In this document: piece after piece, positions 34,822 to 42,468 of the stretch
Numbering within the stretch: the stretch's first letter is position 1
How the letters are laid out: every line of letters starts with the position of its first letter
DNA from: an uncultured Candidatus Binatia bacterium
GTDB lineage: Bacteria > Desulfobacterota > Binatia > Bin18
Direction of reading: 5' to 3'
Assembly (NCBI GenBank): GCA_965200965.1
Contig: OZ241744.1
Coordinates: 1,920,001-1,984,000 of the forward strand
DNA length: 64,000 nt
Position numbers and translations under genes: made by a program
The notes under the pieces: generated by a model
Told to the model about the DNA's origin: nothing
Seen by the model: only the letters and a program-made list of their open reading frames with translations
Databases searched by the model: none

Positions 34822-36012
34822 CTAGCGCCGCACGGCCGGTGCCTCAACCCCAAGACCCCGTCCCCGCCAGGCCAGATACAACTCAAGATTGACGTACTCG
34901 TCCGCCCCGTAGGCGAGCGGTTCGGCCCGGATAGCCGTATTGCACCAGGCAAACATGCGGTGGCTGGAGCCAAGGGTCTGCCAAGTGTGGCGATAGACCG
35001 GAAAGCCGTTGATCTGCCCCTGGCTGATGACCTCACCGCGCAGGCGTTGACCGGCATATCGTTCGTGACAATGGGCGCAGGCCATGTCGAGCTGACCCCG
35101 CCGGCGCTCAAAAAACGCCCTGCCGGCCTCAAAAAACGGCTTGGCCGGCCCCTCGATATCGACCTCCAGCGGCATGCCGCGCGACTCGAAGCTGAGCAGC
35201 GCGGTCAGGGCTAGCAACTCTTCGGATTCATACGCATAGGCGACCGCCCCGAGGCGTTCTTCACGGCAGCGGTTGATCTGTTGTTCGAGATTGATCAGCC
35301 TCTTGCGACGGGCGTCAAAACGGGGAAAGCGTGCGCGTGTCCCGCGCAGGTCGCTCGCCGCATGACAGCTCACGCACGACTTCTGGCTCGGACCGTGCGG
35401 TTGTGCCCACAGCTCGCCACCGCGCTCAACCCACAACAGGCCCGGATTGCCAAAGGGGTCGTCCTGCAAGCGTCTGTTTTCCTCGGACAGATAGGTAGAG
35501 CCCGAGCGGCGGCCGTCAACGCGATACGGATGGGCGAACGGCACGGTGGCTGGCGGTGGTGGCGGGGGAGCCGGTCCGTCGGTTCGCAGGCTGAGGAGAT
35601 AGGCAAGCACATCCTCAAGCTCTTGGGCATTCAGGATCGGCTTGCCGCGGTATCGCTCAAGGACCCGGTGTAAGCCGCGGGTTGTGGCATAGGCCGGCAT
35701 GATGGTGGCGGGGTTGAAGAGCTTGGGATTGACCAGGCGTAAGCGGAGCTCAGCCGCGGAATAGCGGCTGCCGACCCCATCCAGGGGCAGGCCCAGCGTC
35801 CCGTGAAACCGGCGCTCGGGCAGCGGCATGGCGTGACAGATCACGCAGTCGCCCCGCTGGCTGTCAAGCGCAATACGCCGCCCCCGTTCCACATCGCCGG
35901 GCTGTGCGGTAGGCGCGGGCGGCATCACACTGGCGCTGTCACCGGCAAGGCCAAGGCTCAGCCCGCCCACACCGACCAAGGCGGCCAAGACGACAACGAC
36001 AGCTCTCAACAT
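34822..36012 (-). CDS. soxXA: SoxX-SoxA fusion triheme cytochrome c
   Basis: Signal peptide; SoxX part CVICH..TIMPAY; Pro-rich linker; SoxA part NPGLLWV, CVSCH, INRCR, CAHCH, FPVYR, WCN..RAEP, LELYL..RGRG..PAVR. Confidence 0.88.
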   Translation of the reverse strand: MLRAVVVVLAALVGVGGLSLGLAGDSASVMPPAPTAQPGDVERGRRIALDSQRGDCVICHAMPLPERRFHGTLGLPLDGVGSRYSAAELRLRLVNPKLFNPATIMPAYATTRGLHRVLERYRGKPILNAQELEDVLAYLLSLRTDGPAPPPPPPATVPFAHPYRVDGRRSGSTYLSEENRRLQDDPFGNPGLLWVERGGELWAQPHGPSQKSCVSCHAASDLRGTRARFPRFDARRKRLINLEQQINRCREERLGAVAYAYESEELLALTALLSFESRGMPLEVDIEGPAKPFFEAGRAFFERRRGQLDMACAHCHERYAGQRLRGEVISQGQINGFPVYRHTWQTLGSSHRMFAWCNTAIRAEPLAYGADEYVNLELYLAWRGRGLGVEAPAVRR

Positions 36013-36013
36013 C

Positions 36014-37276
36014 CTAGCCAAAGGTATCAGATGTGATATTGGCGTACCACGACCGGGCATACTCGGCCTCCAGGGCACGGATCGCGTCTGGTGCATCAAG
36101 CGGACTGGTCCCGCTTGAGCTGGGCGCAATTGTGTTGTTTTCAACACGGTAGACCGCGGTAATGGAAATCGCGTAGTCAGGCGCGACCAGGCTGTAGCAG
36201 GTGTTCATCAGGACCGGCTCTGGCCGCGGCTTGCCGCGGAGTTGGGCGACAATCGCCAGCGCGCAGGCTTTGGCCTGGACATTGGCGCTGAAAGCCGACT
36301 TGGGCATGGGGTTGGCGAGGGCAGCATCGCCAATAATATGCACATCCGGGTGGACGGTTGATGCAAAACTGCGGCCTTTGATCGGACACCAGCCTGTGTC
36401 CCGGTCCAGCCCGGCAGTCCGGGCAATGGCCGCGGCCTGTTGTGGCGCAATGATATTGGCCACCGCGGGTTTATATTCCTCAAATTCGGTGCGGACGACA
36501 CCGGCCCGGCTATCAACCCCGATGACCCGTCCGCCCTGGGCCGCCGGCACCCATTCAAGCAGACCAGGATAGAAGCGCTGCCAGGCGGCCAGAAACAGGG
36601 TGTCCTTGGTGAAGCTGTCCTTAGCGTCCAGGATCAGGAGTTTTGAGTTGGGCTTAGCGCGTGTGAGGTAGTGGGCGATGAGACTCGCTCGCTCGTAGGG
36701 GCCTGGCGGACAGCGGTAAGGCGTTTCCGGGACGCTGATCACCACCAGCCCGCCATCGGGCATGGTTTGGAGTTGACGCCGCAACAGGAGCGTTTGCGGC
36801 CCGGCCTGCCAGGCGTGGGGGAAGACCTCGGCTGCCGCCCGGTCGTAGCCCTCCAGCACTCCCCAGCGCAGCCCAATACCCGGCGAGAGGACGAGTTTGT
36901 CGTAGGCCAAGGTCCGGCCGTCGGCCAGCCAGAGACGATGGCGGGCTGGATCAAGCCGGGTGGCCTGGCCGTGGATGAGCCGCATGCCGTAGCGTTCCTG
37001 GAGGGCATGGTGGCTATAGGTCAGGGAGGCAAGGTCGCGCAGACCGACCAGGGCGGCGTTGCTGAACGGACAGCTGATAAACCACTCCTCCGCGGTCACC
37101 AGGCTGACTTCCAGCCCGGGGTCGGCCTGGCGCAGGTATTTGGCGCAGGTCGACCCGCCAAAGCCGCCGCCAACCACCACGACCCGCGCCGAGGTTTTTG
37201 CTGAGGCGCGGCACCTCGGCAGCCCGGCGAGGGGCAGGCTGGCAGCGGTGCTGAGCAGCTGGCGACGGGTCAGCAT
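36014..37276 (-). CDS. fccB: Flavocytochrome c sulfide dehydrogenase flavoprotein subunit (FccB/SoxF)
   Basis: Tat signal TRRQLL, GGGFGG, SCPFSN, YRCPPGPYERA, MPKSAFSAN, NTCYS. Confidence 0.93.
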   Translation of the reverse strand: MLTRRQLLSTAASLPLAGLPRCRASAKTSARVVVVGGGFGGSTCAKYLRQADPGLEVSLVTAEEWFISCPFSNAALVGLRDLASLTYSHHALQERYGMRLIHGQATRLDPARHRLWLADGRTLAYDKLVLSPGIGLRWGVLEGYDRAAAEVFPHAWQAGPQTLLLRRQLQTMPDGGLVVISVPETPYRCPPGPYERASLIAHYLTRAKPNSKLLILDAKDSFTKDTLFLAAWQRFYPGLLEWVPAAQGGRVIGVDSRAGVVRTEFEEYKPAVANIIAPQQAAAIARTAGLDRDTGWCPIKGRSFASTVHPDVHIIGDAALANPMPKSAFSANVQAKACALAIVAQLRGKPRPEPVLMNTCYSLVAPDYAISITAVYRVENNTIAPSSSGTSPLDAPDAIRALEAEYARSWYANITSDTFG

Positions 37277-37312
37277 GAGCTTACGGCATGTCCTTGGGAG
37301 CCTGCGTACATG

Positions 37313-41042: not shown

Positions 41043-41062
41043 AACGGTCTCCCTTGTCTTCG

Positions 41063-41695
41063 CTACATCATATGCGGGGACAGCCCTAGGTCAGCCAAGT
41101 CCTGCCAGTAGGCTTCGGCGGGGACCATGCCGATCTGGCGCTTTTTGCCGCCCATAATGACCGTCGGCACGGCGCTGATCAGGTAGCTATCAACCGCCTC
41201 AAGGCACTGCTGGCGCACGGTATCCTGAAACGCCTTGTCCTCAATATCGCGCAGGAACGCGGTCATATCCAGACCGCAGGTACGCGCGACCGCTACGAGG
41301 TTGTCCTTGTCAATGAGACTCTTGCTGTCAATGAAAAAAGCCCGAAACAGCCCGGTATGAAAGTTCAGGAAGAGGTCCTCGCCCTGACGTTGGGCGGCCA
41401 CGCCGGCTTCCAGGCCCGGCATACTCCAGCGCGGAAACTCTTCGTGCGGCCACATGGTGTAGGACAGGCTGTCCGGCTCGGCCAGGGACGAGGCGTGTTG
41501 CCAGGCATATTCCACACGGCTGCCGCTGAACTGAAACGGCCGGGGGTCGTAGTGCGGACGGAGGGCGAACGGGTGCCACTTGATGCTGACCCGTTCGCCG
41601 TAGTGCTGTTTGATCTGGTGCAGGCGCACGGCCGCTGGATAACACCAGGGTCACAGATAGTCAGAGAACTCGAGGATTTCGATTGGAGCGTCCAT
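41063..41695 (-). CDS. DsbA/FrnE-family thiol-disulfide oxidoreductase, predicted selenoprotein (U15xxC18)
   Basis: ATG 41695 with [36 protein letters not shown], continuing in frame into ORF 41063..41629 (ISAVPT cis-Pro loop); TGA at 41653-41651 sits at the first Cys of CxxC. Confidence 0.88.
41615..41648 (-). promoter_or_regulatory. Candidate bacterial SECIS hairpin
   Basis: Starts 2 nt after the UGA: CUGGUG..CACCAG lower stem enclosing a CAG..CUG upper stem with a G-containing apex. Confidence 0.45.
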
Positions 41696-41697
41696 GT

Positions 41698-42468
41698 CTA
41701 TTCTCTCCTCTTTTCTCGCAGCCTGGCGAGAACCGCGTCGTGGACCCGCCCGTTCGAGATCACCGCGCTGCCGCTGTAGATTGAAGGGCTGCCGGTAAAA
41801 TCAGAATAGCGCCCGCCGGCCTCAGTCACAAGCAGCTTGGTCGGTGCCACATCCCAGGGTTTGATCTCCGGTTCAAGGGCGACCTCGGCCTGGCCACAGA
41901 TCACCACGCTGTGGCCGAGCGCGTCGCCAAACCCGCGCTGGCGGGCGGTCGCATCCACCAGGGATAAAAAGGCCGGCCAGCAGGGAAGGGTCTTCAGGTC
42001 GCTCAGGCCGCCGTGGATGAGCATCGCCCGGTCTAAATGCCCAACATCTGAAACCCGGACACGCCGGCCGTTGGCAAACGCTCCCTGGCCTTGTCTTGCG
42101 TACAGCAACTCGCCGAGCGCCGGCACATACATGACCCCGACCGTGATCTGCGCGGCTTCTTCCAGGGCAATCAGGGTAGCGAAGAACGGAATGCCGCGGA
42201 TGAAGTTCCTGGTGCCGTCAATGGGGTCAATGATCCAGCGGGCGTCGTTCGCGCTTGGCTGCTCGCCTAACTCTTCGCCTAGGAAACCGTGCTCCGGGAA
42301 ACGCCGGCTCAGCAGTTCGGTGATGCACGCCTCGCACTCCCGGTCGGCTCGGGTGACGGGCGTGCGGTCGGCCTTGGTTTCAACGCTGAGGTTGGTACGG
42401 AAATAGTGCCGGGCGATCTCACCGCCGGCTTTAGCCGCCTCAATCGCCGCGGAGAGAAGGGCGTCCAT
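41698..42468 (-). CDS. hisN: Inositol monophosphatase-family protein (histidinol-phosphatase HisN-like)
   Basis: KADRTPVTRAD, GEE, WIIDPIDGTRNFIRG, KPWD, EAGG. Confidence 0.8.
   Translation of the reverse strand: MDALLSAAIEAAKAGGEIARHYFRTNLSVETKADRTPVTRADRECEACITELLSRRFPEHGFLGEELGEQPSANDARWIIDPIDGTRNFIRGIPFFATLIALEEAAQITVGVMYVPALGELLYARQGQGAFANGRRVRVSDVGHLDRAMLIHGGLSDLKTLPCWPAFLSLVDATARQRGFGDALGHSVVICGQAEVALEPEIKPWDVAPTKLLVTEAGGRYSDFTGSPSIYSGSAVISNGRVHDAVLARLREKRRE

Follow-up and report, generated by a model that had tools for sequence, protein, structure and literature searches.

What duplicate sox clusters do has been an open question since the work on Starkeya novella. The second cluster of this bacterium, soxX2Y2Z2A2F2 (Snov_1982-1977), stands with the xanthine-oxidase-family genes Snov_1975/1976, includes neither SoxB nor SoxCD, and is described as being of unknown function (PMC3797975). 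The same study gives SoxAX and SoxYZ of this cluster as undetected in proteomes, with very low transcripts in the tested growth conditions, thiosulfate included (PMC3797975). Here, we examine a similar gene set in an uncultured Candidatus Binatia bacterium (assembly GCA_965200965.1), carried on a 64,000-nucleotide stretch of contig OZ241744.1 (positions 1,920,001 to 1,984,000 of the forward strand), which as a whole is called the window. The set lies among nine minus-strand genes packed within 42468..34822 and runs from iorA to soxXA, comprising a xanthine-oxidase-family molybdenum (Mo) enzyme (IorAB), the SoxYZ carrier, a flavocytochrome c (FccAB) and a SoxX-SoxA fusion. Judged from its sequence, this set may encode a carrier pathway, located in the periplasm, that handles a sulfur compound with less anionic character than thiosulfate and in which IorAB would unload the carrier in place of SoxB and SoxCD. 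We put this forward as a tentative reading, with a little less than even confidence.

Like the second cluster of S. novella, the set unites SoxAX, SoxYZ, a SoxF-like flavocytochrome c and a xanthine-oxidase-family Mo enzyme without soxB or soxCD, a match that rests on gene content. Unlike that cluster, which lies alongside a complete Sox system, it is the sole sox set found in its genome, and it further differs from the S. novella description in that soxX and soxA are fused, soxYZ follows directly after iorB, and a methionine occupies the SoxA position of Arg218. Bradyrhizobium holds a second soxY copy in what is presumably the same cassette, bll2732-2737. Of the two soxY homologues of Bradyrhizobium, soxY1 alone is reported to be indispensable for oxidising thiosulfate (PMC5748708), and bll2737-bll2736 is listed among iron-enzyme operons (PMC1698941). 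Approximately 1000 soxA, soxX, soxY and soxZ paralogues have been placed outside recognised clusters in a paper that does not contain the word "xanthine" (PMC13500833), and carbon or organosulfur roles have been proposed for divergent SoxY arms in another (PMC11237559). The main text of the S. novella genome paper (PMC3570799) contains neither "sox" nor "xanthine". A literature search, with subscription papers and supplements that may cover variants outside its scope, returned no function for the cassette, no Met or Glu variants of the SoxA pocket, and no paper pairing "SoxY" with "AACIE". The cassette is real and already described, and its function is unexplained; new here are the fused SoxXA, the Met218 pocket and the standing of the cassette as the only sox set of a genome. 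To these are added a split in co-occurrence between two types of SoxY arm, an IorB clade marked by Arg64, two variants of the SoxA pocket, and a fusion confined to Binatia-type cassettes.

The canonical Sox systems of Paracoccus pantotrophus and Rhodovulum sulfidophilum share with the window a dihaem SoxA with a cysteine ligand, SoxX, and SoxYZ with a C-terminal cysteine arm. Here, however, the GGCG arm, SoxB and SoxC are absent, Arg218 and Lys208 of SoxA have given way to other residues, and the linked Mo hydroxylase comes from a different family. The window genome is a single contig, 99.3% complete with 5.74% contamination, and the proteins of its closest named relative, a Binatia metagenome-assembled genome, are 82-95% identical to those of the window. 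Searches of this genome gave no match for SoxB, none for the SoxC probe, and no second SoxY, with GGC arm or otherwise; a genome-wide search of this kind had been suggested in the first-pass annotation. Two sulfite-oxidase-family matches turned up, one being MsrP and the other a fragment without an NCBIfam match at 1e-10. Methanethiol oxidase (PF05694) and YeeE (PF04143) were searched in the window genome and not found.

The extent of the cassette was defined by comparing loci, namely the DNA around SoxY homologues. These were drawn from one search (13 loci), 20 of 21 other class-level places (the weakest omitted), 66 of 90 alphaproteobacterial places plus one more, five of six places of another set plus one, two further loci and three plasmid records; one duplicate of locus L004 was dropped, L024 was classified manually, and four loci whose arms were truncated or of another kind were kept separate. 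A gene was counted as present when tblastn gave 30% identity over 40% of the probe, and the SoxB and SoxC probes were verified against NCBIfam. Around SoxY with an Ala-Cys (xAC) arm, 49 loci gave matches to iorB in 43, iorA in 41, soxZ in 48, soxX in 44, soxA in 43 and fccB in 35, whereas soxB was matched in none and soxC, dsbA and hisN in one each. The 55 loci with a GGC-arm SoxY present the opposite picture, with iorB in none, soxB in 37 and soxC in 22. Conservation extends over seven genes, from iorA through soxXA, rather than nine. The earlier suggestion that iorAB, fccB and a dsbA gene accompany this kind of SoxY stands for iorAB and falls for dsbA, with fccB an optional member of the cassette. 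Nine loci hold iorB and soxA but lack fccB, which reduces the core to the Mo enzyme with SoxXA and SoxYZ; FccAB is the part lost most often. The smallest cassette consequently comprises SoxXA as loader, SoxYZ as carrier and a Mo hydroxylase, each with a predicted periplasmic location. SoxB was found in six of 37 cassette-bearing genomes, always at a separate GGC-arm cluster, with no match in the other 31, and in none of 13 genomes of the window's family, which bears out the earlier view that the set dispenses with SoxB and SoxCD. In terms of frequency, 13 of 18 sampled genomes of that family match the cassette, and among 301 sampled alphaproteobacterial genomes 14 score above the AACIE-arm cut-off. 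Outside the cassette, no family recurred widely among the 117 flanking open reading frames scanned at 35 loci.

The SoxXA fusion (34822..36012; 397 codons, three CxxCH motifs) scores above the cut-offs of both TIGR04485 and TIGR04484. Its SoxA part aligns with R. sulfidophilum SoxA (1H31_A, whose numbering, counted from the alignment, is used here) at 183.5 bits, and the stretch around the active site cysteine is ungapped. The haem-ligating Cys222 is kept as Cys357, and Arg206 is also kept; Met353 replaces Arg218, Trp356 stands at position 221, and Thr343 replaces Lys208. In TsdA, Arg119 binds thiosulfate and is described as invariant across TsdA and SoxA; the exchange R119A raises the Michaelis constant by about 20- to 80-fold (PMC4423706). 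From the i,i+4 spacing to the cysteine, we infer that TsdA Arg119 is equivalent to SoxA Arg218, and, from its Lys/Ser content, that position 208 corresponds to TsdA Arg109. Loss of the residue that grips thiosulfate in relatives suggests that the set likely handles another sulfur compound.

The survey revealed two variants of this pocket. In SoxA from GGC-arm loci, Arg218 is present in 34 of 35, and position 208 is Lys, Ser, Thr or Ala and never an acid. A first xAC-arm type combines Met or Ile at 218 with Trp221 at 20 loci, 15 of them Binatia-type, and forms a single branch (support 96). The second type (n=23) keeps Arg218 and places Glu (19 loci) or Asp (one) at position 208. Both routes appear, from the residues at these positions, to reduce the positive charge of the pocket, and a pocket with fewer basic residues points away from thiosulfate and toward sulfide, polysulfide or a thiol. 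Among the best 120 of 1944 database homologues, the position of residue 218 is Met or Leu in 115, and the remaining five were unfit for the pattern. Fusion of SoxX to SoxA occurs at 16 of the 43 xAC loci that carry soxX and soxA (the window among them) versus 0 of 27 GGC loci; these 16 are all of the Binatia-type cassettes, and no other locus has it. Binatia SoxA proteins lie closer to the GACD-arm type (56% vs 47% identity) and Binatia IorB proteins to the Arg/Glu type (50% vs 37%), while SoxY is equidistant. A rule by which arm type would track the IorB subclade was considered and left unsupported by these equidistant SoxY identities.

The Mo enzyme is encoded by iorA (40584..41042), which opens the cassette and specifies a small subunit with Pfam Fer2 and Fer2_2 domains, two [2Fe-2S] clusters and no signal peptide, and by iorB (38399..40573), whose product bears the MoCoBD_1/2 domains and a twin-arginine translocation (Tat) motif, SRRSFL. 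With MoCoBD domains, cofactor motifs, a catalytic Glu and a partner carrying two [2Fe-2S] clusters, IorAB has the features of a xanthine-oxidase-family Mo hydroxylase. The nearest solved relative of IorB is the large subunit of the Gluconobacter aldehyde dehydrogenase, 8GY3_C (template-modelling score TMq 0.88, 27% identity; the IorB model has a predicted local distance difference test score, pLDDT, of 89.0). With the membrane-bound aldehyde dehydrogenase of Gluconobacter oxydans and other IorAB-type enzymes it shares the fold, the domain order, the Tat motif on the large subunit, the small subunit with two [2Fe-2S] clusters, the lack of an FAD subunit and the catalytic Glu. It differs from 8GY3 in belonging to a separate clade, in having Arg64 where 8GY3 has Asn and Arg119 where 8GY3 has Trp, and in the lack of a multi-haem cytochrome c gene within the cassette itself. 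A FastTree phylogeny, with Shimodaira-Hasegawa-like (SH-like) support and no bootstrap, was built from 70 rows, namely 36 sox-linked IorBs (two of them duplicates) and 34 unlinked ones taken from 80 places. One branch (support 99) gathers 34 of the 36 sox-linked rows and three of the 34 unlinked ones, the other 31 unlinked falling outside it, and each of the three unlinked members belongs to a genome that carries an xAC cassette at another place. Sequence comparison therefore places the sox-linked IorBs in a dedicated clade of their own. Arg64 occurs in 35 of 35 clade members and in none of 33 others, and an Arg at 118 or 119 in 32 of 35 versus four of 33, both positions lying near cofactor-binding motifs; Glu48, Glu372 and Trp684 are likewise typical of the clade. 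The cofactor motifs are retained, and the catalytic Glu689 is present in all 35 clade members. Shared ancestry alone could have fixed the clade residues. As a separate observation, tandem iorAB pairs precede a single cassette in two genomes, three pairs in G153 (L175, G153:C62:10000-29999) and two in G238 (L088), all within the sox-linked clade, which hints that several Mo enzymes share one carrier.

The soxY gene (37954..38418) encodes a paralogue with a twin-arginine motif and an arm ending VVTAAACGEGL, in which the carrier cysteine is Cys150 (codon 37971-37969). An AAC-type arm had been noted at first reading, as had twin-arginine signals on IorB, SoxY and FccB, and the arm and all three motifs are visible. 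The best-scoring model is TIGR04487, the SoxY-related AACIE arm protein, at 165.8 bits against a cut-off of 172, followed by the true SoxY model TIGR04488 at 106.1 against 125; none of 22 class-level SoxY matches attains the TIGR04487 cut-off. Records annotated as TIGR04487 share the Ala-Cys arm and have the same neighbours, but here the arm reads AACGEGL and the score is just below the cut-off, which places this SoxY in a sister group and, formally, outside the family. The Ala-Cys of the arm is invariant across 37 aligned sequences. SoxZ (37627..37950, GTG start) passes TIGR04490 with 91.3 bits (cut-off 76), and a monohaem, FccA-like cytochrome c with a CVVCH motif (37313..37630; Pfam Cytochrom_C) overlaps the soxZ stop by 4 nt. 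The FccB/SoxF flavoprotein (36014..37276), with FCSD domains and a twin-arginine motif, matches 5N1T_A over its full length with 489 bits and retains the cysteines of the YRCPPGPYER and NTCYS motifs. A full-length FccB match, the motif cysteines and an adjacent monohaem cytochrome are shared with the FccAB/SoxF proteins 5N1T, 3VRD and 1FCD; the difference is that FccAB is here embedded in a cassette, and that it is missing from nine otherwise complete copies. SoxY proteins with short GACA or GACS arms were also seen at four loci, two beside a non-clade IorB without SoxA and two beside SoxXA without IorB (L094, L111, L098, L107), and these possibly represent further independent recruitments.

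Taken together, the proposed mechanism would proceed as follows. The seven genes would be a mobile cassette, and the system they encode is likely a carrier pathway of the periplasm. The fused SoxXA would attach a sulfur compound of less anionic character than thiosulfate, such as sulfide, polysulfide or a small thiol, to the arm cysteine of SoxY. The dedicated IorAB would then oxidise and unload the tethered group through a presumed SoxYZ-IorB contact, replacing SoxB and SoxCD. FccAB would serve as an optional extra loader providing sulfane from sulfide, and electrons would reach the respiratory chain by way of the [2Fe-2S] clusters and the c-type haems. This carrier pathway draws support from the gene content, the export motifs, the strictness of the co-occurrence, the distinct clade of the linked IorBs, the SoxA pocket poorer in basic residues and the intact catalytic residues (the SoxA Cys, the IorB Glu and the FccB cysteines), and in a genome where SoxB and SoxC were not found the Mo enzyme is the sole candidate to unload the arm. 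Of the version proposed in the first-pass annotation, the partnership with iorAB and the dispensability of SoxB and SoxC have been retained, and the SoxA pocket speaks against ordinary thiosulfate coupling, whereas the part given to a selenoprotein and to selenium has not been upheld.

Several points weigh against this carrier pathway. Both its substrate and the SoxYZ-IorB contact are inferred. To our knowledge, no xanthine-oxidase-family enzyme acts on sulfur or on a protein-bound substrate, and the nearest solved relative of IorB is a dehydrogenase of free aldehydes. Two sox-linked IorBs fall outside the clade, beside short-armed SoxYZ without SoxA. The subtype of SoxA does not follow the IorB subclade, a mosaic history that is unexpected for a tight hand-over of one substrate. 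At the threshold used, six of the 49 xAC loci lack iorB: three end at contig breaks (L009, L044, L046), one (L050) lies in a genome, G433, that encodes a clade IorB elsewhere, and the remaining two have SoxY with short GACS arms. Binatia-type kin make up 15 of the 49 loci with an xAC arm and 15 of the 20 with Met or Ile in SoxA, so the co-occurrence counts overstate independence. Within the pocket, the Met subtype retains an Arg one residue before position 218, and the HMMER alignment of the S. novella type II SoxA contains a one-residue gap that brings this preceding Arg into register; an AlphaFold2 model of SoxXA (14 sequences, pLDDT 47.8) was too poor to place it and was unused. The R119A variant of TsdA retains activity (PMC4423706). 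The authors of the S. novella work allowed that low expression might mean no functional significance (PMC3797975).

One alternative holds that the two halves of the cassette are parallel branches with no hand-over. Thiols or thioacetals would yield aldehyde and sulfide, IorAB would oxidise the free aldehyde, and SoxXA, SoxYZ and FccAB would capture the sulfide as sulfane sulfur and might take the electrons. Such a division agrees with the aldehyde dehydrogenase as nearest solved relative and with the uncoupled SoxA and IorB subtypes. It also gains from a copper primary-amine oxidase gene, whose product would make aldehyde, in the fetched stretch of 10 xAC loci (L022-L025, L005, L020 and L027 among them), the gene ending about 30 nt ahead of iorA in L022-L025. 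However, this link is confined to Binatia-type cassettes, which are kin, in a survey with no widely recurrent flanking family, and parallel branches leave unexplained both the separate clade of linked IorBs with fixed arginines and the loss of FccAB ahead of any other part. We regard it as rather unlikely. Xanthine-oxidase-family enzymes require a sulfido ligand, and this opens another route, in which SoxXA and FccAB would load a persulfide onto SoxY, and this persulfide would renew the terminal Mo=S ligand of IorB in the periplasm, as repair or maturation. A SoxA that handles persulfide would have no need of a sulfonate-binding pocket, and other SoxYZ-like carriers travel with pyrroloquinoline quinone (PQQ) dehydrogenases bearing an adjacent-cysteine disulfide (PMC12997753). 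The usual maturation route is nevertheless present, since the window genome encodes XdhC with a nucleoside triphosphate (NTP)-transferase-like neighbour, and XdhC and a MobA-like transferase directly adjoin the cassette at L013; a stricter version in which the Sox parts replace XdhC was rejected on the presence of XdhC. Moreover, 28 of 33 unlinked IorBs carry a Tat-like motif by a crude pattern, yet have no such helpers alongside. This supply of sulfur to the enzyme seems to us unlikely, and slightly more so than parallel branches.

Ordinary thiosulfate oxidation, with SoxB and SoxCD provided from elsewhere, would agree with the canonical NCBIfam cut-offs that SoxA, SoxX and SoxZ pass. With SoxB, SoxC and a GGC-arm SoxY not found in a nearly complete genome, SoxB missing across the family genomes searched and Arg218 lost, this reading is largely refuted, and we give it next to no weight. 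A selenoprotein that works in the cassette was another proposal, either by resetting the SoxY cysteine as SoxS or SoxW would, or as part of a pathway handling selenium. The gene concerned, a DsbA/FrnE-like neighbour (41063..41695; Pfam DSBA), has an in-frame TGA at codon 15 (41653-41651) within a UxxC motif. The TGA is kept in 12 of 12 fetched family loci (its own included), the DsbA Pfam match rises from 52.7 to 85.5 bits on read-through, and the genome encodes tRNA-Sec and selB, all of which makes a selenoprotein very likely by sequence. Hairpins that might serve as a SECIS element are predicted just after the TGA (-9 to -19 kcal/mol; no shuffle control) but differ between homologues. The gene lies 20 nt before iorA in the window and directly before iorA also in G043 and G773, so co-transcription is plausible in the genus. 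Elsewhere it is about 9.7 kb off (G118) or more than 1 Mb from the cassette (G034, G078), it stands beside only the one xAC cassette counted above, and among 31 family genomes a match was found in 25, including three (G025, G007, G061) where the cassette SoxY was not found. Its protein begins directly at the thioredoxin motif with no visible signal peptide and would hence be cytoplasmic, apart from SoxY; neither the export signal nor the conserved place in a sox cluster that mark SoxS/SoxW-type proteins is seen. A role in resetting the carrier is thus not upheld, and nothing in the analysis points to a selenium substrate; we consider either very improbable, if a shade less so than ordinary thiosulfate oxidation.

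Returning to the carrier pathway, its wider form would be a widespread, unrecognised route of (organo)sulfur oxidation free of SoxB and SoxCD in Binatia and Proteobacteria. The anion pocket of SoxXA would have been rebuilt twice independently, sulfane or a small thiol would be placed on SoxY, and the IorAB clade would oxidise it off, the whole being mis-scored as thiosulfate oxidation. We advance this wider form with even more reserve than the pathway itself. The canonical NCBIfam cut-offs are all passed by SoxA, SoxX and SoxZ, so a survey can count such genomes among thiosulfate oxidisers despite the missing SoxB and the changed pocket. The cassette is common, and the two pocket variants together with the clade residues of IorB offer exact positions for testing. 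If the Mo enzyme does act on SoxY-bound sulfur, this would be new chemistry for the xanthine-oxidase family.

The nine genes are separated by gaps of 2, 20, 10, -20, 3, -4, 36 and 1 nt, so that the initial description of co-oriented genes with gaps of at most 36 nt and overlaps at iorB/soxY and soxZ/cytochrome c was reproduced. The first of them (41698..42468) is a HisN-like inositol monophosphatase family gene (Inositol_P; TIGR02067 241 bits, below the cut-off of 275) that lies near dsbA in 12 of 12 fetched loci. At an empty site in G025, dsbA and a homologue of the gene at window 33017-34240 face each other, and no cassette separates them. From these arrangements, hisN and the selenoprotein gene appear to be a family-wide pair into which the cassette is inserted, and both are probably mere neighbours outside its mechanism. 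An extended -10 had been assigned ahead of hisN. It is unlisted in a sigma-70 scan and was rejected as a promoter, the stretch being the last two codons and stop of a short-chain dehydrogenase/reductase (SDR)-family gene, which relatives carry intact but which has decayed in the window. About 90 bases of this gene remain as a 3'-end relic on the minus strand (42476..42569, set beside L116:1-620; blastn to L116-L120, Pfam adh_short on the intact L116 gene), and an alpha/beta hydrolase gene takes its place ahead of hisN. Within the 3' end of dsbA, a weak site resembling a sigma-70 promoter (9 of 12) was indistinguishable from chance, with 5 found against 1.8 +/- 1.4 expected. An Rfam scan of window 33000-46000 returned nothing besides one tRNA, and a check of sequencing runs listed none with RNA.

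About 65 nt before iorA, a TTGACA-17 nt-CAATCT/CAAGCT element is conserved in six relatives (L017-L021, L027) and also in L005; it doubles as a TTGA-N18-TCAA inverted repeat and is a candidate promoter and regulator site of the cassette. Beside some Met218-type cassettes (flanks of L008, L011 and L088) lies a gene for a multi-domain cytochrome c of 370 to 450+ residues, possibly an electron acceptor of the Mo enzyme by analogy with the aldehyde dehydrogenase complex. L024 (G126:C1:3557444-3557887) has an in-frame TAG within soxY in a cassette that is otherwise whole, either a broken gene or an assembly error. The record of L005 is labelled Enterobacteriaceae; its cassette is 65-82% identical to that of the window and nests among Binatia family loci, for which mis-binning or transfer is possible. 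In family f14 of the same class, loci L031-L034 and L036 hold a GGC-arm SoxY, SoxZ, a cytochrome c and FccB, with no SoxA or IorB match. At the far end of the cassette, some 575 bases (window 34244-34818, plus strand) are missing from the close relative L004; they comprise a short frame-broken open reading frame and, after it, a weak match to a ParE-like toxin domain (E 0.0008, below cut-off), and look like a decayed toxin-antitoxin pair inserted at the cassette end. Beyond them, a plus-strand block (29494-34240) of two permease-like genes, an ABC ATPase and a protein of 407 residues that has no Pfam match converges on the cassette and marks the far edge of its insertion site.

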